Shown piece by piece: positions 1,689 through 46,007 of a stretch of 64,000 nt of DNA. The notes beneath the pieces were generated by a model that had not been told where the DNA came from, did no database searches, and saw nothing but the letters and a program-made list of their open reading frames with translations. This DNA is from Dictyostelium discoideum. Its lineage: Eukaryota. The DNA lies in assembly GCA_000004695.1 (NCBI GenBank), contig CM000153.2, positions 1,088,001-1,152,000 of the forward strand. The letters run 5' to 3'. Within the stretch, counting starts at the first letter, position 1. Each line of letters starts with the position of its first letter. The position numbers were made by a program, and so were the translations under genes.

Positions 1689-1884
1689 GTACAACAACAA
1701 TTAATAAACAATAAAAAGAGATTATTACCCAAACTTTATTACCTTAATGGACAGAATCATAATAACATAAATGTATATAACACAATCAATAGCGCACAAC
1801 AACAAAATAATAATACTGTAAATGAAATAGTTTTTGAACAAAATGAACATCACCAAATGCAAGATCAACCCCTTGATCAGCATC

Positions 1885-1946
<62 letters not shown>

Positions 1947-2168
1947 CCGCAACAACAATTATTAAATCAACATATACAAGAACAAGAACATCATCAATCA
2001 CAAATTTATCATAGTTTTAATAGATTTAACCAAAATACAACAAATATATCATTTTCAAATATTATACCACAACCAGATCTTGGTCAAGATTTCATTGGGA
2101 ACAATCAATTGTTTAAAAAATATAAACAATCTTCGGCAATATCGGATCAATTTATGGATCCAAATTAA
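1062..2168 (+). CDS. Hypothetical poly-Gln/poly-Asn low-complexity protein, 368 aa, apparently single exon
   Basis: ATG in an A-rich context. The long ORF contains two (CAA)n tracts at about 1597-1686 and 1882-1950, plus N-rich tracts. No recognisable domain. Confidence 0.5.
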
Positions 2169-2215
2169 CTTTTATAGAATATAATAATAATAATAATAAT
2201 AAATAATAAATAATA

Positions 2216-2252
<37 letters not shown>

Positions 2253-2620
2253 TATTAATTATTTATAATATAATATAAGTAATTGTAAAATAAATAAATA
2301 AATAATAGAACCATGTAAATAAAATCTTGTTTTTTGTTTTAAAAATAATATATTTTTTTTTTTTTTATTTAATTTTTATCATTGAGAACAAACTATGTAT
2401 AACCTCAATATCTTTTCAAAATTTAAACCTTTGGCAATTTTTTTTTTATTTTTCACTAATTCTTTGATTTGACATACCTTCTAATAATTTGTGTTCTAAA
2501 TAATGTGTACCTGAATTATTTGTTCACCAATAGTTGTTATCTATATCTTGTATTATATTGCACCTAATTGTCCATTTGCATCTGTGTTTTGGCGATTTTT
2601 TTTTTTTTAAAGTAAAGATA

Positions 2621-2652
<32 letters not shown>

Positions 2653-3244
2653 ATTTTTGGGAAAGAACGATTTCTTTAGTTTGGAAGATAAAAAAAAAAA
2701 AAATAAATTAAAAAAATAAAATCTTAAAAATGATTCAGCGAATGGTGTGAATTTTTTAAAATTGGTTAATTCGAATTATATTATTTTTATATTTAATTTT
2801 TTTTTTTTATCTTTCAAACTAATTCATTGGTTTTTTTTGTTTAATGGGCTTTATTAATAACTGATCACTTCCCCAATTTTTTTTTTTTTTTTTTTTTTTT
2901 TTGCTGGCAATATTCCACCAATCTGATTAAAAAAAAAAAAAAAAAAAATTTATAACTTCATCTATTATTAAGGGTTTATTTTTTTAATTTTAAGAATTTT
3001 CATTAATCAAAATTAAAAACCATTAAACGTTTTCTGATTGTATGATAATACCAAAGATTAGAATTTTAAAAATGACCTTTGGTTTTTTTTTTTTTATTTT
3101 TTTTTATTTTTTTTTATTTTTTTTTTTATTTAAAAAATTAATATAAAATAAAGAGCTTTTTTTTTTTTTTTTTTAATTCATCAAAATAAAATCTAAAATA
3201 AAGTAAATAAATAATTACAAAATAATTAATTAAAAAAAAAAAAA

Positions 3245-3694
3245 ATGGTTGTTATTACAGTTAGTTATAAAGTTCATATGACTTATTATTCAGAATCAGC
3301 TGGTTCAATCGGTACTGATGGTATAGGTCCATGTGTTGGTATTATTGCTAAAAAAACAAATGGCACTACTTTCTGTGCTCATATCGCTTCATCTATCCAA
3401 GGAATAGATGCCAATCTACCATCTATTACAAGTAAAACAACAGAATTAATTAATAAATATTTAAAAAATGTAGATTTAGTTGAAATGAGTTGTGTAACTG
3501 GAAATTTAAAAGATAAATCCGCAAATGCAATTTACAAAGGTATCACTAATGCATATGGTGCTAAAGTTAAGGCATTAGTTGAAGGTACTGGTATTTATTT
3601 CAAAGATGGTGCTGTTGGTGTTGTTAAAGCTGAAACAATCAAAGGAACCGTTGAAGGTCCAAACGCCTTTGATGGTCCAATGGATGTCAAATAA
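3245..3694 (+). CDS. Hypothetical small protein of 149 aa, not low-complexity
   Basis: Clean ORF with ATG at 3245 after an A-run (aaaaATG). Balanced composition with Gly, Val and Lys. No family recognised by eye. Confidence 0.45.
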   Translation: MVVITVSYKVHMTYYSESAGSIGTDGIGPCVGIIAKKTNGTTFCAHIASSIQGIDANLPSITSKTTELINKYLKNVDLVEMSCVTGNLKDKSANAIYKGITNAYGAKVKALVEGTGIYFKDGAVGVVKAETIKGTVEGPNAFDGPMDVK

Positions 3695-3923
3695 AATAAT
3701 TCATTGACCCAATGGATATTAAATAAAATAATAAAAATAATCTAATAATAATTAAAAAATAAAATTTTCATTTTCCGTTAATTTTTAAACTATAAAAAAA
3801 TAAAAATAAAAAAAAACAGAATGGTTACATTCATTTTATTTTTATATTTTATATCATTTTGTATTTTTGAGTGCTCTATATTTATATACTAAATTCATAT
3901 TAAAACTAAATAAATTAAATCTT

Positions 3924-3996
<73 letters not shown>

Positions 3997-4737
3997 AAAT
4001 AAAATGAAAAAAAAGAAAATATTTTTATATATTTTTAAGTGGCAAATAAGAATGTTTGTTAATAAAAAAAATAATAAGATCAGAATAATAACTGATTCCT
4101 TAATAATAAAATAAAAATTAATAATAAAATAAAAATTAATAAAAAATTAAAAAATAAAAATAAATTTTATTAAAAGTTATAACCATTAATCCTGGGGGAT
4201 ATATTAAATTTTTAATTTTACAATGTTTTTATTTATTTTTTTATTTTTTGTTTTATTTTATTTTTTTATTTTTTTATTTTTTTTTTTTTTTATTTTTTTT
4301 TATTTTTTTTTATTTTTTTTTTATTTTTTTTATTTTTTTTATTTTTTTTATTTTTTTTTATTTTTTTTGGTGGGTTGAATATCTCAAAATTTTGGGAAAT
4401 TAATTATTTTTAATTTATTTTACCAGGATTAAAAAAAGAATTCGTTTAAAATTGGTATTCGATGAGTTTAAAGATAGTTACAATTTTTTGTACACATGAC
4501 CAGAATTATCATTTAACTATTCATTTGAATTTTCCTGTTTAATTTAATTTAAAATTATTTAATTTAACAAAAAAAAAAAAGAAAAAAAAAAATGTTTAAA
4601 AGGGAAGAAATATTTTTTTTTTTTATTTTTTATATATTCAATAATTAACAATACTCAATAATAATTAAAATTTTTTTTTTTTTTTTTCACTCAATAATTT
4701 TATAAATATCCAATTTTTTTTTTTCCTTAAATATTAA

Positions 4738-6270
<1,533 letters not shown>

Positions 6271-7512: not shown

Positions 7513-10500
7513 AATAAATAAACTTTAATAGTATACTAACTAGAATAGGCGATTTGGCTAAAATTCCATATATTGATAATAATCTTCAAAATCCTTCATA
7601 TCATTTTAAAGAAATGTTTGTATAAATTAATATTATTATTATTAAAATTTTCTTTCCAAATATTAATTTCAGTTTGGAAAAAAAAAAAAAAAGAATATTA
7701 GTTACAGAACAATTAATGTCATTTAATGGTTTAAATTGTTCAAGAATGACTATTACACTTATAAATGCAACAGAACAACATAGTGGATTAGATTTTTTAA
7801 ATACCATTAATAGTATTGATGAATTGAATTTAGATTTTGGTGATAATTTAATTGCCTTTCCAGGTATAATAGGTTCAAACAATAATAAATTAAAAACTCT
7901 TTCAATTTCAGGTAAATTTAAAAAACCATCAATTATAGGATTAACTATTCAAGAAGGCCTTCAAGAGTTTTCAATTAATGGTGGTGGTGAATTATTTAAT
8001 ATTAATGGTGCTTTACCATTCTTAACTATTCCATCTTCATTAAAGTTATTTTATATTGCTGATATTGGTTTAACCACTTTTCCAACCTTTCCACTTAATA
8101 TTGAAACAATGTAAATATATATATATATATATAGTTTAATTTTTTTTTAATTTTTTTTTTAAATACTAATTTTAAAATTTTTTTTTATTAATTTATTATT
8201 ACTATTATTATTATTAAAAAAAACTATTAGATTAATTTATAAAAATAATTTTGGAGGCATTTTACCAGATTTGTCAAGTTATAAAAAATTATCACATGTT
8301 TCTTTAGCAGAGTGTGGTTTCACTGGTACAATTCCAGAAAGTTATTGTATGTTTACTGGTACTTTAAATAATAATTCACTTACTGGTTTTTGGCCCCAAT
8401 GCAAAATATGTTATTTTGATAATTTTGAAGAAAGTTTTGATGGTAATCCATCACTAGAGAAAGGAAATTGTGGTATGTATTATAAATTAAAAATAAAAAA
8501 TAAAATATATATGATTTTATATTAATATTAATATTAAAAAATTTAGAACCAGGATCAATTGTTCCAAATTTAGAATATTATAATGTTTCAAATGAAATAA
8601 CATTATATGGAGAGAATTTAGGCATTTTCGGTCCAGGTAATATTTATAATATAGGATTTAAAGTAATAAATAGACAATCATTATTTAAAGCAATTTGGAA
8701 TGAAACAGCCAATGGTATAATTCCAAATATTATTGAACTTAATTTTGGTGGTACTAATTTTAAATTAGCAACTAAATCTTTAAAACCAATAGTTCAATCT
8801 ATTACAAAGCTTGGTTCTAATTATGCTTTTAAAGGTGAAAATTTCTCTTATAATAAAGAACATTTTGAAGTTAAAATTGGTGGTGTACCATGTGAAATTA
8901 ATTATATTGCTTTTGAAATTATTAAATGTAGTTTCAAAACATCAATATTACCAAATAATGGTATAGATATCAAATCAACAATTCAAAATTTTAATATAGA
9001 TCAAATAATTTCATTCACTGTAAATACAATTGATAATAAAACAACAGATATTTTAACATGTGCATCTGAATGTCTTAATGGTGGTTTTTGTAGTTCAACA
9101 AGTGGTAATTGTATTTGTGGTGAAATATATAAAGGATCTGATTGTGCTATTTTAAAGACATGCCAAAACAATTGTATAGATTCAAATCATGGATATTGTA
9201 ATTATACAAGTGAAAGTTGTGTTTGCGTTAATGGTTGGTCTGGTAATGATTGCTCAACTATGGTTTGTACTTCTGATTGTAGTGAACCTTTAGGTAATGG
9301 AAAATGTGATACAACCACTGGAATTTGTAAATGTTCTCAACAATATACCAGTGATGATTGTAGTTTACCAAATCAATATATTTCATCAGTATCATCAGTA
9401 CCAACAAGCGGTGGTGTTGTAAATATCTGGGGTTGGTTTGGTACAATACATTCAGGATTATCAATTATGATTGATCAACAAGTTTGTCAACATGATGTTA
9501 ATTCAATTACTAGTAGTTTTATAAATTGTACAGTTGGTGCTGGTAGTGGTACACAATCAATTACTCTCACTCAAAATGGTATTACATATACTGGTAATAA
9601 TATGTTCCATTATACTGAATTAACATATAGTTGTCCAAAAGATTGTTCAAATAATGGTAAATGTAATACAAATACAGGTCAATGTAAATGTAATAGTGGA
9701 TGGGGTGGTTATGATTGTAATTCAAAAAAAACAACTCAACCATCAACATCATCATCATCATCAACAACAACTACAGCATCCTCTTCAACAACTGGTTCTA
9801 CTGAGACACCAACACCAACTTCAACACCAGTAGTTGAAATTCCAAAATCAAATACTACAATCAATGAAGATTTAGGTTCAGCAGTTATCAATAATCAACA
9901 GACAACATATGAAATTTCAATTTTATCATTAATTGAAACTGATTTTTCAAATAATATTGTAAATACATTTAATTTATCAAAGAAATGGACAGCTTCAGTA
10001 AGCACAGATAATATCTATAAATTTACTCAAACAATTCAAGAATCATGTAATATCACATACACTATTGAAGAGATTAAAACAGAAAGAGATTATCAATGGG
10101 CAGGTTTAGATTTAACATTGGATAAAGATTCAATCAAAATTTCAGTCTCAATTAAAAATTACACTTTTAATAGTGTTTTAAATAATCTTCAATTAAGATT
10201 TGAATCATTAGTAGGTGATAATAATAAAAATACTCAAGATAATAATGAATGTAATAATAAAGATACTCAAGTTGATACAAGTGAAATCGATAAAAATCAA
10301 TTATTAAATTATGTAACAATATCAAGAAATCAAAAAGTTTTATATGGTCGTTTCATTAATAGAGTTATTAGTGATTCAAGACAAACTTTTATAACAACCT
10401 CTGTAATTCCAAATAATAATAATAATAAACAATCAGTGATCATTGGATTAAATCTTCCACATTGCACGCATGAATGTTTAATTGATCCTGATTTCTCTGT

Positions 10501-10702
10501 TTTGGTTTCACCATCATATCAAGAATGTTCTAGTGATTTAAATAATGGTCGTGCCAGTTGGGTATTACCTGTTGCTATCGTTGTACCTTGTGTTGCTGTT
10601 GCTGCCATTATTATTATTAGTGCGGTATTGTATAAAAAGAATCGTTTATCTTTTTTGATTGTCAAAAATAAGTTAAATAATATAAAACTTTCCAAAAAAT
10701 AA
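6707..10702 (+). CDS. Paralog A of a tandem family: large type I membrane protein (signal peptide, LRR region, IPT/TIG-like fold, EGF-like modules, Ser/Thr mucin stalk, conserved juxtamembrane domain, TM, short tail). About 7 exons: 6707-6918, ~6998-7078, ~7197-7408, ~7532-7615, 7673-8110, 8231-8472, 8547-10702
   Basis: Signal peptide MKIIKYFYTFILYFLFLFNCLA. The LRR motif L..N.L.G.IP appears in LSHVSLAECGFTGTIPESYC and TLNNNSLTGFWPQC. EGF-like modules are CSEPLGNGKCDTTTGICKC, CPKDCSNNGKCNTNTGQCKCNSGWGGYDC. IPT/TIG-like stretch is PNQYISSVSSVPTSGGVVNIWGWFGT...VCQ...FINCTVGAGSGTQSITL. The TM helix is WVLPVAIVVPCVAVAAIIIISAVLY, followed by KKNR. Splice phases are consistent across exons (track ORFs 6533-6922, 7674-8114, 8271-8525, 9260-10702). 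Confidence 0.65.
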
Positions 10703-11058
10703 AAAAAGTAAAATTGTGAATAGAAAAAAAAAAAAAATTAAAAAAAAATTAAAAATAAAAATAAAGAAAAAAAATAGAAAAAAAGAAAATTTAATTTAAT
10801 TTAAATTAATAAACATATCCGAATACCATTTGTAACACTCACATTTGATTGTGTTGATCAAAAAAAAAAATTTTTAATCAAACCTTGAATTGTGAAAGGT
10901 CAGAAAATCTTAAATTACTTGAAATTGAGAAAATAAAAAAAAAGGTTGGATATCCTAAATGAGAGTCCAAGGTGGTTAAAAAAAAAAAAAAAATAAAAAA
11001 TAAAAATTAAAAATTTTCAAAAGAAATCGTGGTCACAAATAACAATCAAAAAAATAAA

Positions 11059-37447: not shown

Positions 37448-38398
37448 TTATGATGATGATGACGATGATGAGGATATTGTTGATGATGTTGATAATAAAT
37501 TAATCTGCTTTTTTTTGTTGTAGTCAAAAACAATGATTTTGAAATTTTAAAAAAAAAAATAAAAAAAAAAAAAAAAAAAATAAAATTTTTTTAAAAAAAA
37601 AAAAAATAAAAAAAAAATTCAAAAAAAAAAAAAAAAATTGAAAAATAAAAAAACATCCTCTGTCGGCTCATGAACATGAAAAAATAAATAAAAAAAAAAT
37701 GATTAAATAATAATCCATTGCACAAAATTCATTGTTTTAAATTTATATTTGCAAATTAAATTCTCAAATTTTAGTTTTTAATATTTTTAAAAATATAAAC
37801 TTTTAATTTTTTTTTTTTTTTTTAAAATGTTAAATTTTTAAAAATTATTTTATAAACCTTTTATTTTTTAAATTTTTTTTTTTTATTATGTATTTTGTAA
37901 ACCTTTTTTTTTTTTTTTTTTTTTTTATCTTTTAACACAAACCACACACACTTTTGTTTTGTATGTATATATATATTATATATATTTTTTTTTTCTTTTA
38001 CAAATAAAGTTTAGTAGATATAATTACAAATAAAAATAAAAAAATAAAAAAAAAAATAAAAAAAAAAAAAATGAAAAAAAAAAAACCTTTTAGAAATCAA
38101 AGTTCATTAATATTTTGTTGTTTTTAAAAGAAAAAATAAAAAAAAAAAAAAACATTAATAAAAAGGTAAATTTAATGTCACCAACAAATTACCATGTACA
38201 AATGAATCGTAAAATTTTATTTTGATATTTCCCAAAATGTGTCGCAATCTTTTTTTAAAATGATGATATTAAATAAAAAACAATAAAAAAACAATAAAAA
38301 AATAAAAACAAAACAAAACAAAACCAAAAAATCAGTTTTTTTTTTTTTTTATTTTTTTATTTTTTTTATTTTTTAATTTTAAAAAGTAATTTCAAAAA

Positions 38399-38432
<34 letters not shown>

Positions 38433-38532
38433 AAAAAAAAAAAAAATAACAAAATAAAAATAATTAATTATTTCATTTATTTATTTATTAATTAATTAAT
38501 TATAAAAAAAATAGAAAAAAAAAAAAAAAAGA

Positions 38533-39306
38533 ATGGAAGCTAAAACTCAATTTGAATTAATAACAATTAAAAGTGAAGATGGATTTGATGAAAACGAACT
38601 TTCAGTTTTATTAAAAAGTGATAGTGATTTTCATATGAATGGATTCATTTGGGGTCATTTGGCAGCAAAACATGTATATTCTAAATTAAATAGTAAATTG
38701 AAATCATTTGAACCAAAATCCAGATCAGAAATTAATGAAATGATTAAAGCAATTACAGCAGTGACCGAATTCATAGAAGTGCATTACTACCATGAAGAAG
38801 AGATAGCATGGAAGTTTTTAATTGAGCAACAGCAATGTCTATCGGAACCATTATTGACCATTGTCAAACCTCAACATACTCAATGGACTGAGATTAATAA
38901 TGAAATGAAGGATTTGGTGAAATCGTTGACTGAAAACCAAGAAATTAAAGATAAATCATCAAATGGATGGACTGAATCAATTTCAAAAGTGAAAGAAATC
39001 CTTCAAAAATTGACAGCTATGGTTTATAAAAGTTTTTATGATGAAGAAAGAATTATTATACCTGTTGTTTTAAGTTCAATCCCAAAGAGTAAACAAAATA
39101 AATTGGGTGAGAAAATGAATGAAACTATGAAAAATGCACCAACTTCTAAATTTGTTTTAGGTGCAATCTTGGATGTTTGCAAAACTAATAAAGATTTAGA
39201 TGAAAATGTTAAAAAGGCAATTCCATGGGCTGTTAGAAAAGTAATTTTCCCATTAGCTCTTGAAAAGAATTATAATTGGTTCTCAGAATTTGTTGAAATT
39301 AAATAA
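38533..39306 (+). CDS. Hypothetical protein of 257 aa, single exon; possibly a hemerythrin/HHE-like cation-binding fold
   Basis: ATG at 38533. Clean non-repetitive ORF with spaced His/Glu motifs: HMNGFIWGHLAAKH, EVHYYHEEEIAWKFLIEQ. No firm family assignment. Confidence 0.45.
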   Translation: MEAKTQFELITIKSEDGFDENELSVLLKSDSDFHMNGFIWGHLAAKHVYSKLNSKLKSFEPKSRSEINEMIKAITAVTEFIEVHYYHEEEIAWKFLIEQQQCLSEPLLTIVKPQHTQWTEINNEMKDLVKSLTENQEIKDKSSNGWTESISKVKEILQKLTAMVYKSFYDEERIIIPVVLSSIPKSKQNKLGEKMNETMKNAPTSKFVLGAILDVCKTNKDLDENVKKAIPWAVRKVIFPLALEKNYNWFSEFVEIK

Positions 39307-39839
39307 ATTTTTTTAAGAAATCTATTTTTATTTTTATTTTTGATTATTATTTTTTTTATTTATTTTAATTGTCTCTTTTTAGTACTATGGAAATGTTATC
39401 ATTTTTATTTTTTATTTTTTTATTTTTTTTTTATTTTTTTTTTTTAAAACTGGTTAAATTGATGTTATTTAAAACAAAATTAATTTTTTTTTCTTGTTTA
39501 GAATAAAAACAAAAAAAAAAATGTTTTGAATTAAAACAAAAAAAAAAAAAAAAATATCTTTTTTCGTGCATTTTCATGAAAAAAAAACAAGATTTTTTAA
39601 TTTTTTTGTTTTAATTCAAAATAAATAAACAGGGTAAATTAAACCAGGAATGAAAATTTTTGATGGGTGGAAAAAATAAAAAAAAAAAAAAAAAAAATGA
39701 ATTGAAAAATTAAACAGTAAAAAAAAAAAAAAAACCAAAAAAAAAAAAAAAAAAAAATTAATATCAACGAAAAATATTATTAAGTTAAAAAAGAAGAAAA
39801 TTAAACAAATTAAAAAAATCGAAAAACCAAATAAATATA

Positions 39840-40197
39840 ATAAAATAATTAATAAAATAAAACAGATTAATTAAAAATAAATAAATATATTAATATTTAA
39901 ATAAATTAATAAATATATAAATAAATAAATAAATAAATAAATAAAATTAATTAAAAAAATTAATAAATAAATAAATTAATAAATAAATAAATAATAAATA
40001 AACAAATAAACAAATAAATAAACAAATAAAATTAATTAAATAAAAATTAATAAAAAATAAATAAATTATAAAAAAAAAAAAAAATAAATAAATAAATAAT
40101 AAATAAACAAATAAACAAATAAATAAACAAATAAAATTAATTTAATAAAAATTAATAAAAAATAAATAAATTATAAAAAAAAAAAAATATATATATA

Positions 40198-40250
<53 letters not shown>
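39840..40250. repeat. Complex AT-rich tandem repeat ((AAAT)n and (AAATAAAC)n), including a direct duplication of about 95 bp at ~39990-40080 and ~40085-40180
   Basis: The unit aaataataaataaacaaataaacaaataaataaacaaataaaattaat...taaaaattaataaaaaataaataaattataaaaaaaaaa recurs nearly verbatim. The repeat ends just before the ATG at 40255. Confidence 0.7.
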
Positions 40251-40252
<2 letters not shown>

Positions 40253-40254
40253 AA

Positions 40255-40694
40255 ATGAAAATATTTAAAAAAGTATTTTTATTTATTTTAATGATAACGA
40301 TATCATTCCTAAATATAGTTAAATCTACAGAAATTGATGAAAATAATAATAATAATAATAATAATAATTCGACATCATCATCAGAAAAAATAATAAAAGG
40401 AAAAGAAGATGAGGAAGAATTAAAAAATGCATTTTCAAGTTCAGTAATACCACCAACTGATCATAATAGTGAATTAAGAAGGAAAAAAGTTATAGCATCA
40501 ACAATTACTTTATTTGCATTTATTATTTTAGTACTTATAGTTAGTATTGTGGTTCGTCATGTTTTAAAAAAAAAGAAAAGAACAAAAAATAATTTTATAT
40601 TTTTAGATGATCAAAGTTTAAATGATTGTAACATAGAATTAAATGTATCATCTGAATACTTTTGTGATGAAAATAAATTATTAACCACCCACGA

Positions 40695-40698
<4 letters not shown>
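40255..40698 (+). CDS. Small hypothetical type I membrane protein of 147 aa
   Basis: Signal peptide [24 protein letters not shown], an N9 tract, TM helix [22 protein letters not shown] followed by the stop-transfer HVLKKKKR, and a short tail containing Cys. Confidence 0.45.
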
Positions 40699-40736
<38 letters not shown>

Positions 40737-41042
40737 AATTAAAAAAAAAAAGAAATTTCATTTTTTAAACACTCCCTTTTTTTATTTTTTTTATATTTTA
40801 ATTTTTAATTTTTAATCCTTTTTGGTAAAAGGATAAAAATAAAATTTTATTTTTTATTTTTTACTTTTTTATATTTTATATTTTAATAAATTTAAATCAA
40901 ATTTAATTAAATTTAAATAATAACTACCAACACATTATAATTATAAATTAATTAATTATAAAAAATAAAATAAAATAAAATAAAACAAAAAATTTGTAAA
41001 AATAAATTAATAATTCATTTATTTTTTTATATTTTTATATAT

Positions 41043-41090
<48 letters not shown>

Positions 41091-41094
<4 letters not shown>

Positions 41095-41640
41095 ATATTT
41101 GAAATGAATAATAATGAAATGATTAATATGATTAAAATTGATAATAATAGATTTTGAAAGATATTTCTAGCATCAGAGTATTGATGAGTATCATCAGATT
41201 GAGTTAGATATTTGAATACTTTTGATATACCACTTTTACCATGGGTTGTAACATTGATAAATATGATTTCACCATTTTTAATATTATTAAATGTATTATT
41301 TGTTGCTTGAATAAAACATGTAATCATTGTATCATTAATATACTTTGGTTCATTACAATTTAAAATATCACTACCATTACCATTACTATTACTACCAACT
41401 ATTGTTACTTTATCAATTGGATAATAGAAATCATTACCAATAATTGTTAAAATACCTCCTTGTTTTAAATTAACAATACTAGTTTGATTAATTGGTGGTG
41501 ATTTATAGATTATATTAAATGTTGATACTATTTTATTATTATCATTATTACTAAATGATAATGTACAAGTTTTATCATTTGGACGATTTAATTTAATGTT
41601 GCATTCTATTGATGTACTATTATTTAATTTACATTCGTAT
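41091..41640 (-). other. Open frame of about 183 codons with no start codon and a TAA immediately upstream; only its last 78 codons appear in the ORF track. It encodes an IPT/TIG-like beta-rich segment and a C-terminal TM helix. It is probably the terminal exon of an unannotated gene or a gene remnant
   Basis: The minus frame reads ...KCIDSKLIRYECKLNNSTSIECNIKLNRPNDKTCTLSFSNNDNNKIVSTFNIIYKSPPINQTSIVNLKQGGILTIIGNDFYYPIDKVTIVGSN...DILNCNEPKYINDTMITCFIQATNNTFNNIKNGEIIFINVTTHGKSG...IFQNLLLSILIILIISLLFISNI*. There is no ATG and a TAA lies immediately upstream. The nearest in-phase acceptor is aataatag. Confidence 0.3.
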
Positions 41641-42146
41641 CGAATAAGTTTGGAATCGATACATTTTTAAAAATTGGTATTAATTAATATTTTTTAAAAT
41701 TTAAATAAAAAAAAATAAAAATTGGTGTAAGTGGGTTTTAAGAACTTTTTTTCTATTTTTAACTTTGAATTGCATAATGATGTTTTAAATAGAAATGATA
41801 ACAATTTTTTTTTTTTTTTTTAATTTTTTTTTTTTTATTTTTTAATTATAAAAAAGACTTTATATGGCCAGCTTCTTCATCAAATAATAATAATAATAAT
41901 AATAATAACAATAATGATGTAGCTTGTTCATCAAAGAATAATAATAATAATTATAATAATAACAATAATAATAATAATAATAAAAATAATAGAAATAATA
42001 ATTATTATAATCATAATCAAATCCAAAATCAAAGTCAAAACCACAACAGAGGTATAGTAGATAATAGGATTAATAGTAATAATAGTTTAAGTATCAGAGA
42101 CAGCAACGGCAGAAACAGAGATAATGGCTGCGATATTAATAATTAT

Positions 42147-42262
<116 letters not shown>

Positions 42263-42787
42263 TAAATTAAAATTAAATTAAAATAAAATTAATAGGCAAA
42301 ATTATCAATAATCTTTTATTACTATTTATTATTTATTATTTATTAACTTGTAGTTTTAAAATGATTAGATAAATCTTGGACATTGAATTTTTCCAAATTA
42401 AATCTTGTATTTATATAACTTTCAGGAATGATTGGATATAGATGGTTGACTCTTTTGTTTATTATATTGACCATTAAAAGTTGATAATAAATTATTTTGT
42501 TGTGATTGTTGTTGTAGTTGTTGTGCTTGTAATGCTGCTTTCTTTTTTAGTTAAAATTGTAATTGTTTGAACTGGTTGTTTTTGACTTTGATGCTGTTGT
42601 TGTTGTTGTTGTTGTCCTCTAGAGGTGAAGTAGGTGGAGAAATTGGATAAGGTGAATATTGATTATTTACCTGTAAATTATTAGTCTTATTTTTATTATT
42701 TGATTTTGGTGAAACATTTTATTGTTGTTGTTGTTGTTATTGTTGATTATTATTATTTGGTGTTTGAGGTTGTATTTGTTGCACCTG

Positions 42788-43012
42788 TTACCAATTGTTG
42801 GTAGGTGAATTGATTACCACCCATTCAATTTTACCAATTTCTTTTCTAGTACGTGGATAGAAGTAAGTCTCTTTGAAAACTTCACGAATTGCACAAACTG
42901 AATCGGGTTCATCCTTATTGACTTTACCTTTCGGGAAACCTATTGTTACTACCATTTCCCTTAAACGAATGTTGTTCAAATAATGCTTGATGATGGGGAT
43001 GCATATGAGGTG
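42788..43012 (-). pseudogene. Fragment of an mRNA-decapping enzyme Dcp2-like Nudix domain, truncated and internally deleted; a likely pseudogene or gene relic
   Basis: The minus frame ...IPIIKHYLNNIRLREMVVTIGFPKGKVNKDEPDSVCAIREVFKETYFYPRTRKEIGKIEWVV...* matches the Dcp2 Nudix box (GFPKGKVNKEE....CAAREVFEETGFD). It lacks the roughly 35 residues between REVFEETG and ...TRREIRNIEW and has no Box A. It is bounded by stops (TAA upstream, TAA at 42788). The flanking Q/N/P-rich sequence is full of in-frame stops. Confidence 0.45.
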
Positions 43013-43709
43013 GCATTAACATACCATCTGACTCATGCATTGAATCCGTTTGTATGTGAATGAGGTGGTGCTGGTGCAAACATATTATTTGGTGGTTGCA
43101 TAAAATGATGTGGTGACATTATTTGTTGTGGTAGTGACTGTGGTTGAAATTGTTTCAAAATTAATAATTCAGAAGTAATGTTTATCGTCTTACTATTTTG
43201 GTATTTTTATATAATAATTTCAGTTTTTTTAAGTTTCATTAATTTTTATAATCTTATAAACACTTTTTTTTATATAAAAAGAAATTTAATTCTAAAAATG
43301 GTTATATACGATTAGAAATTAATTATCATAATAATAATAAAAAAAAAAAAAAAAAAAAAAATTATTAATAATTTTGAAAATAATAACAATTACAACAACA
43401 ACAACAAAAATAAAAATAATATAAACCAACCTCTACAATTACATTCATTGGTGATGATCTAATCATTAACAATTTGGGAAAAAAAAAAAAAAATGAATTA
43501 AAAAAAAAAAAAAAAATAAAAATAAAAATAATTGTGTTAATAAAATTATTATATCTTAAAATATGAAAAATAAAATTAAATAAATTAGATATCACCAACA
43601 AGAATTTAAACAAAAAAAAAAAAAAAAAAAAAAAAAAAATTAAAAAAAAAAAAATTTAATTATTATCAATTTAATAATAAATATCTTGAATTTAAAATTA
43701 TTTTATAAT

Positions 43710-43746
<37 letters not shown>

Positions 43747-44284
43747 GAATCAACCCAATTAATTTATTTTGGGTTAAATTTAAAAATAAAAAAAAAGAAT
43801 AATTGTGTATTATTATTTTTGTTTAGTTACTAATATATACTAATTACTTTAAAATATTGGGTGTAAATAATATTATCATAAAATTAAAAATAGAAATAAA
43901 AAAAAATAATTAAAATAAAAAAAAAAATAAAAAAAAATAAAAAAAAATAAAAAAAAAAATAAAAAAAATAAAAAAAAAAATACGTTTTCTATAACTGATA
44001 AACCAAAATCATTTTCAAATAAAATTTTCCAAAAAAAAAAAAAAAAAAAAATTCAAAATAAATTCAGAAAAAAATTAAAAAAAAAAAAAAAAAAAAATTC
44101 TGATAGTGTGCGACCACAGAATTTTATTTTTAATATTATTTTTATTTTTTTTTTTATATATTAATATCTCAAAAATATAAAACCAATAAAAAAAAAAAAA
44201 AAAAAAAAAAAAAATTAAAATTTTTATTTTTTATACAACCAAAACTATATAAATAAATATATATAAATATAATTACAATTTAAA

Positions 44285-45349
44285 ATGTACTCACCAGAAG
44301 ATTTAGAATATAGAGAACAACAACGTTTAAGTAAAGCATTACAAGGTAAATTAGGTGGTGCAAGCTCAAGAAAATCATGGGCACCAGTTGTAACAGGTAA
44401 ACCACAAACACATAGTGCACCAGTTAATAGTTCATTTGCATCAATTTCAATTTCAGATAAGCACCACGAATCACCATCAACAACAACATCATCACCATCA
44501 ACATCATCAGGTGTTGATAATAGTTCAATCTATCCAGGTGCAATCGTTGAGGATAAAGTTAAATCACAAGAAGCACACCGTTTGAAAAAGATGGGTCTTT
44601 CAACTGAAGAAGATGAATCAACCGCTCATATTCCAGCATATACTTCATTAAATTCATCATCCTCATCCACCATCTCAAAGAGTAATAGCAATCAAAGCCT
44701 TGCAAAGGAAACCAGTAGTAACAACCTCTTGCAATATCAATCACCAGTTAGAGTAGCCAGCTCAACATCATCTGAGAATTTAGTCGATAGTGCTTCCATT
44801 ATGAACAACGTTGATTCTCATACCTCTGAAGAGAAAATGAAGCAAGAGGCAAAGAGATTAGAAAGATGGGGTTTAAAGATTAACTCACCAACTGCTACCT
44901 CACCAAGCACTACCTCACCACCAGTCTCTAGTACCACTCCGGTTGCACCAGTGACTCCAACCGAACAATCTGTACCACAATCTCCATTCTCAACTGGTGC
45001 TGCCGTCTCTGTCAATCAAAGTCATAGCAATCTCCCAATCGCTACTACCCAACAATTCCTTGATCGTATCGTTCTCTCTGCTAAATCCGTTAAACAAATC
45101 ATTCAAAAGAAAACCTCTAATCGTGATATTGTCATCTCTATTCTCATGGATTTAGTAAAGGAATCTGCAAACTTTGGTATGACTCTCTCTTCAACTACCC
45201 CAATGTCTTTCGATATCTCTCAAAATGCTGGTAAACTCGCTGGTGCTGTCAATGAATTAGTTAAAGACACTGCTCACGAAAATAATAAAATCTTTGATGA
45301 AATTCAAGTACTCTTAGGTTTATTATATTTAGCTGTTGTTGCTAATTAG
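44285..45349 (+). CDS. Hypothetical Ser/Thr/Pro-rich protein of 354 aa with a conserved-looking alpha-helical C-terminal domain; single exon
   Basis: ATG in a tttaaaATG context. The N-terminal part is S/T-rich, with repeated KRLE(R/K)WGL/KKMGL motifs (EAHRLKKMGLSTEEDE ... EAKRLERWGLKINSP). The C-terminus is TQQFLDRIVLSAKSVKQIIQKKTSNRDIVISILMDLVKESANFGMTLSS...LAGAVNELVKDTAHENNKIFDEIQVLLGLLYLAVVAN*. C-ending codons such as TCC, ACC, GGT and CTC are notably enriched compared with neighbouring genes. Confidence 0.55.
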   Translation: MYSPEDLEYREQQRLSKALQGKLGGASSRKSWAPVVTGKPQTHSAPVNSSFASISISDKHHESPSTTTSSPSTSSGVDNSSIYPGAIVEDKVKSQEAHRLKKMGLSTEEDESTAHIPAYTSLNSSSSSTISKSNSNQSLAKETSSNNLLQYQSPVRVASSTSSENLVDSASIMNNVDSHTSEEKMKQEAKRLERWGLKINSPTATSPSTTSPPVSSTTPVAPVTPTEQSVPQSPFSTGAAVSVNQSHSNLPIATTQQFLDRIVLSAKSVKQIIQKKTSNRDIVISILMDLVKESANFGMTLSSTTPMSFDISQNAGKLAGAVNELVKDTAHENNKIFDEIQVLLGLLYLAVVAN

Positions 45350-45892
45350 AGAAAAAAAAAAAAAAAAAAAAAAAAAATAATAAAAATAATAAAAATAAAA
45401 ACCATTAAAAATTTGTAAATTAAATGAAATAAGGTTTTTTTTTTTTTTTCTCTAAAAATAAATATGAAAATAAGTTTATTTTATTTTAATTAATAACTAC
45501 TTTTATAAATTAATTGTACAAATATAAAATAAAAGATTAATTAAAATAATTTATATTGTTTATTTTTTTTTTTTTTTTTTCAATTATTTTTATTTTAAAA
45601 TTAAAAGTTAATTATTAATAATTTATAGATAATATAAAATAAAATAAAATAAAAGAAAATTTATTTAAAGAGAGAAAGTAAAATTTATTAATGAATGGGA
45701 GTTGTCAATTATTATTTTTTTCTTTTTTTTTGGGAAGATATTTTATTTATCCAAAATTATAATGAAAATTTAAATTTGGTAAGATTTAAGGAAAAAAAAA
45801 ATAAAAAAAAAGAAAATTTAATTAATTAATAAATATAACGCTCCTTTACTTTTTAAATTATTAATAATTATTTCTCAAAAAATAACGAATTG

Positions 45893-45924
<32 letters not shown>

Positions 45925-46007
45925 TTTTCTTTTTAGCACATCAAAAAGTTATCGTTTTTTTTTTTTTTATTTTTTTTTATTTGTTTTTATTTTCAATAAA
46001 GAAAGAA

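Follow-up and report, generated by a model that had tools for sequence, protein, structure and literature searches.

The Nudix box of Nudix hydrolases reads GX5EX7REUXEEXGU and includes both catalytic glutamates. The closest described systems for the locus analysed here include the genes for the decapping enzyme Dcp2 and the partial copies derived from them. We compared dcp2 loci from D. discoideum isolates other than the strain of the window (the whole stretch of 64,000 nucleotides under analysis), namely L001/L003 and L002 of assembly GCA_054859355.1 and L009 of GCA_054859385.1. The L009 gene (917-3053) is intact, with three exons (917-1471, 1564-1628 and 1757-3053) encoding a 638-aa Dcp2. 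The L002 gene gives an intact 678-aa protein after removal of one inserted C; at this locus (2750-5017) the extra C could stem from faulty assembly or be a genuine frameshift. A reconstructed parent matches the Pfam DCP2 Box A profile with 105 bits and the NUDIX profile over positions 3-119 of 134.

Other copies of dcp2 in these isolates are damaged. In L001 (6001-8287, equivalent to L003 10001-12287) most of exon 1 is gone and an (ATAAA)n tract stands in its place; further lesions of this copy are an 8-bp deletion and a TAG in frame, and the deposited model P0001 spans the damage with artificial introns. The L001 and L002 copies are around 99.7% identical in unique dcp2 sequence and around 88-90% identical in gene X, a neighbour that in the parental loci encodes 786-953 aa and is convergent with dcp2. 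In L009 (1-20647) the whole dcp2–gene X–tgrO unit has been re-duplicated in tandem, partial dcp2 copies included. One of these (9956-10955) retains only the N-terminus and Box A, in a 184-aa model (P0052), and is fused to fragments of gene X; another (15095-15358) is a scrap with the C-terminus only, lying between tgrO genes. When the D. purpureum dcp2 locus (L004) was compared with the D. discoideum loci for synteny and for the question of an ancestral locus, dcp2 itself was the sole match.

Two Dcp2 homologues are listed in RefSeq for AX4, XP_639160.2 and XP_644425.1 (PMC5862402, S5 Table C), both named mRNA-decapping enzyme 2, the first a strong match and the second a weaker one. XP_644425.1 may represent a partial copy of dcp2 of the kind seen in L001 and L009. 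According to published work, duplication in the tgr subfamilies approaches the rates of transposons, and AX4 contains 26 tgr pseudogenes (PMC12745789).

Against this background we analysed a block at 43158-40893 of the window that resembles dcp2 on the minus strand. With a probability of roughly 90%, we regard it as an unprocessed duplicated pseudogene block that has decayed without selection and is unable to make a decapping enzyme.

Anatomy of the dcp2 relic

A preliminary description of this DNA had placed a decayed Nudix fragment at 42400-43140. That extent is too small, as the dcp2 part alone occupies 43158-42343 and the whole duplicated relic continues to 40893. Alignment to the L002, L001 and L009 coding sequences, together with a stitched translation, shows that the dcp2 pseudogene (42343-43158, minus strand) runs from around nt 71 of the coding sequence (CDS) to its TAA stop at 42345-42343. 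In a three-frame translation of 43330-42300, coding-like stretches rich in Q, N, P and H switch among the three frames, and a stop ends each of them. The stitched translation matches D. discoideum P0001 (459 aa, with Pfam DCP2 Box A and NUDIX) with E=2.3e-49 and P0002 (176 aa, with a Q/P/H-rich N-terminus) with E=3.2e-9, and it also matches the D. purpureum orthologue P0003. At the DNA level the relic is 84-94% identical to the dcp2 loci L001, L002 and L009, and the protein match and this DNA identity together exclude a chance resemblance. The Q/N/P-rich sequence reported on both sides of the Nudix fragment is real and riddled with stops in all three frames; what had been called pseudo-coding is more precisely the decayed N- and C-terminal low-complexity regions of Dcp2.

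The homology is thus to a functional gene of the same species. A full-length dcp2, for which the preliminary description proposed a check, exists elsewhere in the species in the form of the intact L009 gene, and the laboratory-strain parent is known only from the AX4 accessions in the literature. When the whole window was searched by tblastn with the Dcp2 models, no further Box A or Nudix locus came to light, hence the parent gene lies outside the window. The GC content of the relic is 31%, compared with 33% in the parental CDS, 11% in the adjacent intergenic DNA and 21.5% in the whole window, the last figure being typical of Dictyostelium DNA. The relic is therefore still gene-like in its GC content.

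The 5' part of the relic (42968-43158, minus strand) aligns with the Q/P/H-rich N-terminal region of Dcp2, approximately aa 25-113 of 638, and corresponds to the P0002 match. It has suffered deletions of 6, 15, 17 (frameshifting) and 45 nt and one 6-nt insertion, and alignment to the parental loci reveals no recognisable parental ATG or promoter at the 5' end. This part stops at the junction of the largest dcp2 deletion (42960-42968, minus strand), which carries an ATT microhomology. According to the alignment and the structure of the parent gene, around 730 bp of the parent are lost here, comprising around 494 nt of CDS and both introns, and with them Box A in its entirety and the beginning of the Nudix domain. 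The absence of an N-terminal Box A had already been remarked upon and is borne out by the alignments to the parent and by Pfam, which gave no DCP2 Box A (PF05026) match in either the 63-codon open reading frame (ORF) or the stitched translation.

That ORF, listed among the open reading frames at 42788-42979 on the minus strand, encodes the 63 aa MNNIRLREMVVTIGFPKGKVNKDEPDSVCAIREVFKETYFYPRTRKEIGKIEWVVINSPTNNW. It starts with TTG, its first ATG is at 42955 and, as first described, the stops that flank it in its own frame are both TAA. Alignment to the parent and Pfam show that it consists of a Nudix-box fragment, GFPKGKVNKDEPDSVCAIREVFKET, joined in frame to the post-Nudix strand YFYPRTRKEIGKIEW by a 105-nt deletion, the ends of which are bounded exactly by the direct repeats GAAGAGACTT/GAAGAAACTT. 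The Nudix-box piece (42959-42869) contains a 5-nt deletion, and the piece beginning with YFYPRTRKEIGKIEW (42868-42790) contains a 1-nt insertion, near 42809 and inside the ORF. The segment between REVF(K)ET and YFYPRTRKEIGKIEW that was said to be lacking is indeed gone, through a precise loss of 35 codons relative to the parent. Likewise the string GFPKGKVNKDEPDSVCAIREVF quoted for this ORF is present in it. The quoted REVFEETG is not, as the ORF reads REVFKET.

Hence the Nudix box is not intact. It reads REVFKET|YFY, with K in place of the leading E of the EE pair, and the remainder of the box fell within the 105-nt deletion. The Pfam NUDIX profile (PF00293) matches the ORF over positions 32-69 of 134 with 22 bits, just above the cut-off of 21.1, and the stitched translation over positions 32-69/71 of 134 with 20 bits, just below it. 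A complete Nudix fold (around 134 positions) is absent, since the same deletion takes out 35 core codons. The best-supported reading of the ORF is an open stretch that has survived by chance in decaying sequence.

Beyond the Nudix fragment, translation and alignment identify a decayed Q/N-rich Dcp2 linker (42612-42789, minus strand; CDS approximately 1316-1481), which is preceded by a 202-214-nt deletion. Stops have arisen in it through changes of CAA to TAA, and it has gained a 6-nt repeat and a further 2 nt by insertion. The Dcp2 C-terminal region follows (42343-42615, minus strand; CDS approximately 1563-1917), again recognised by translation and alignment and ending in YPIIPESYINTRFNLEKFNVQDLSNHFKTTS and the stop codon. 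One nt has been inserted and 2 nt have been deleted in this region, which also lacks CAA-repeat blocks of 81 and 81 nt, or of 279 nt in comparison with L002. The final 100 nt or so of the relic CDS are unusually well kept, with 97 of 98 nt conserved. The boundaries of the relic fall in AT-rich low-complexity DNA.

Aligned to the L009 CDS, the relic keeps around 764 of 1917 nt (approximately 40%) with 34 substitutions, distributed 10/7/17 over the first, second and third codon positions. GC-to-AT changes number 17 as against 10 in the AT-to-GC direction. Among 671 sites aligned three ways, 39 of the 41 differences are specific to the relic. Its divergence from the parental loci is 4.5-6%, a figure that includes between-strain differences because those loci come from other isolates. 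There are at least eight frameshifting indels as well as internal TAA stops; stops occur in all frames, the parental ATG is missing and no continuous frame runs from a start codon to a stop. Deletion junctions other than those described above have 2-3-nt microhomologies or near-direct repeats. Collectively, these disabling lesions and this relaxed constraint are those of an unprocessed pseudogene.

Homology beyond dcp2

Homology to the parental loci does not end at the dcp2 stop codon. The sequence immediately downstream (42133-42342, minus strand), made up of the 3' flank of dcp2 together with an (ATT)n tract in which the convergent neighbour has its N-rich 3' end, is 92-94% identical to L001 8024-8493 and L002 4748-5186. 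It is followed by a fragment of the 3' end of gene X on the plus strand (41870-42017) that bears the motif TTTGATGAACAAGCTACATCATT and is 90.7% identical to L003 12372-12522; this fragment is mostly repeat and its boundary is soft. Further along, DNA homology and translations identify the C-terminal end and 3' flank of a tgrO-like gene of the TIG/Ig_TgrO1 family (40893-41681, minus strand). It is 86.7% identical to L003 over 775 bp (18457-19215), 96% identical to L003 18321-18370 and 89-90% identical to two tgrO genes of L009, and an internal deletion of around 87 nt shifts its frame. Pfam gave no match for the tgr fragment alone, and its tgr identity rests on the DNA homology. Between the gene X fragment and the tgrO-like piece around 5.8 kb of parental DNA are absent, and all the pieces downstream of dcp2, from its 3' flank through gene X to the tgrO end, keep the parental order and orientation throughout.

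Several other features of the region were recorded. The (ATT)n microsatellite is long, at around 150 bp (42133-42290), and an (AAAT)n tract (41040-41095) directly follows the stop codon of the tgr fragment. A unique, relatively GC-rich segment of around 114 bp inside the relic (42020-42133) matched none of the parental loci compared; either divergence of a part of gene X or an insertion could account for it. The relic is bordered by a gene encoding 147 aa (40255-40698) on one side and by a gene encoding 354 aa (at 44285) together with dus on the other. A lone GC-rich imperfect palindrome, TTCTGTGGTCGCACACTATCAGAA, lies at 44098-44121 in intergenic DNA of 11% GC, around 170 bp upstream of a gene starting at 44285, and could be a regulatory element.

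Because the homology runs into the flank and two neighbouring genes in parental order and orientation, the copy was made by segmental duplication of DNA and not by retroposition. As judged from the sequence comparisons, the 2.3-kb block is a collapsed copy of a dcp2–gene X–tgrO unit at least 8 kb long.

Origin and coding capacity

The preliminary description had suggested a relic either of a duplicated decapping-enzyme gene or of a retrotransposed copy. The first suggestion stands; the second fails, as the flank and neighbour genes were duplicated along with dcp2. Under the retrotransposition reading, a dcp2 mRNA would have been reverse-transcribed, inserted here as a processed pseudogene and subsequently decayed. 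D. discoideum does have active non-LTR retrotransposons, and the relic resembles processed pseudogenes in having a disabled reading frame and no parental intron sequence. Retained introns are the classic mark of an unprocessed copy, but their absence is uninformative in this case because both introns lie inside the single deletion of around 730 bp, which also removed exon sequence. Moreover, unlike processed pseudogenes the relic has no poly(A) tail: no poly(A) tract follows its 3' end, where the parental 3' flank simply continues, leading to the gene X 3' end on the opposite strand and then to the tgrO end, which is around 6 kb away in the parent. A tRNA scan found no tRNA gene nearby. With neither a 3' poly(A) tract nor homology limited to the mature transcript, but homology that reaches non-transcribed flank and two neighbour genes, we reject the processed pseudogene as extremely improbable. 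An assembly artefact or a chimeric mis-join in the source sequence might be suspected, since the region lies between long tracts, AT-rich or microsatellite, that make assembly difficult. We reject this too and give it next to no credence, because the relic (40893-43160) is 100% identical, with the same flanking genes, in the independent long-read assembly GCA_054883475.1. The window's pirin ORF and 354-aa ORF were found exactly on chromosome CM142510.1 of that assembly, which is 99.3-99.7% identical to the window with differences almost all in repeat lengths; these matches place the window in a D. discoideum chromosome of laboratory type. Exact-product look-ups for the window ORFs of 147, 459 and 480 aa gave no match.

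The duplicated pseudogene block could conceivably still have a role, either as a short gene or through its transcripts. In the automatic annotation of GCA_054883475.1, a three-exon gene model of 118 aa lies on the dcp2 relic at window positions 42955-42422 (L010 4155-4688), and such a gene might yield a truncated Nudix-box peptide that ends in the C-terminal tail of Dcp2 and serves as a decoy or a regulator. In its favour, the frame of 63 codons is open and the 33 C-terminal codons are nearly unchanged. However, the model could not be reproduced unless introns of 132 and 45 nt, the latter not AT-rich, were assumed, and these are needed just to skip stops and frameshifts. The product would keep 38 of 134 Nudix positions and no Box A, and its catalytic REVFEE motif would have E changed to K; half of the substitutions are at codon positions 1 and 2, the parental promoter and ATG are both gone, and the 118-aa model has no Pfam match on record. 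We consider a functional short gene very improbable. As a regulatory pseudogene, on the other hand, the relic would be transcribed in sense or antisense and would supply the Dictyostelium RNAi machinery with small RNAs directed at dcp2 paralogues. Genes of the Dicer-like, RdRP and Argonaute types exist in Dictyostelium, and stretches of 60-110 nt in the relic are 95-99% identical to parental dcp2. Yet an Rfam scan of 38000-47000 returned no family matches, and the structure is riddled with deletions and shows no sign of selection. A regulatory role of this kind is compatible with the pseudogene explanation and not exclusive of it, but we rate it as very improbable. We hold it very unlikely, too, that the relic is transcribed and its near-identical stretches give rise to antisense or small RNAs tuning dcp2 through RNAi; in that event mRNA decay would be subject to feedback from the pseudogene of a decapping enzyme.

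The same annotation places a 163-aa model on the tgr fragment (window 41091-41664; L010 2824-3397), which likewise has no Pfam match. Both 'hypothetical proteins' are probably false-positive genes called on pseudogene DNA. That the Nudix fragment is not a functional gene, as the preliminary description proposed, agrees with the present data: the relic cannot make a decapping enzyme because it has no start codon and no Box A, its Nudix fold is incomplete, with a third of the core absent, and a catalytic glutamate is mutated. Nor could splicing restore a full Nudix fold here, since the DNA for Box A and for 35 Nudix-core codons has been physically deleted. The best-supported conclusion is that the relic DNA does nothing as a gene, and we infer that it is untranscribed.

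History of the relic and its relation to other copies

We propose a model in which a segmental duplication would have copied a unit of at least 8 kb comprising dcp2, the convergent gene X and a tgrO-like gene, from a source lying in a tgrO gene cluster; the unit has itself been re-duplicated in a wild D. discoideum isolate. The copy would then have been under no selection. Deletions between short direct repeats or microhomologies, together with slippage in CAA and AAT repeats, would have shortened it, and small frameshifting indels and AT-leaning point substitutions would have eroded what was left. The colinearity, the junction repeats and the pattern of substitutions all point to such a course of duplication followed by decay, with the order of events and the neutrality of the decay as its more conjectural parts.

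Compared with the intact dcp2 of L009 (917-3053), the relic is clearly homologous, in DNA and in protein, at the low-complexity N-terminus, in the Nudix box and the strand that follows it, and in the Q-rich tail and the C-terminal motif as far as the stop codon; the 3' flank is shared as well. It differs in having only around 40% of the CDS, in lacking the ATG, Box A and introns as well as 35 Nudix-core codons and at least 202 nt beyond them, and in carrying at least eight frameshifts and REVFKET in place of REVFEET. The truncated tgrO-like end, and the segmental duplication of a tgrO unit followed by truncation and deletion, are shared with the unprocessed pseudogenes of tgr clusters; unlike those, the relic carried a housekeeping gene, dcp2, and sits between unrelated genes away from the tgrO array. 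Similar objects are the partial dcp2 copies of L009 (9956-10955 and 15095-15358), which are also by-products of duplication of the dcp2–X–tgrO unit that retain part of dcp2, and which may correspond to XP_644425.1 of AX4. These copies are younger or less decayed, at 93-94% identity in long uninterrupted blocks, and remain inside the array, whereas the relic is dispersed and consists of several short pieces taken from along the whole gene.

The relic is thus an ordinary unprocessed pseudogene. It has no bearing on the mechanism of decapping, and its significance is mostly one of annotation hygiene, in that the locus should be labelled a dcp2/tgrO pseudogene block. It also shows how deletion mediated by repeats and microhomology whittles down copies in an extremely AT-rich genome, and it provides a small, concrete example of fast-duplicating tgrO clusters scattering pieces of an adjacent housekeeping gene.
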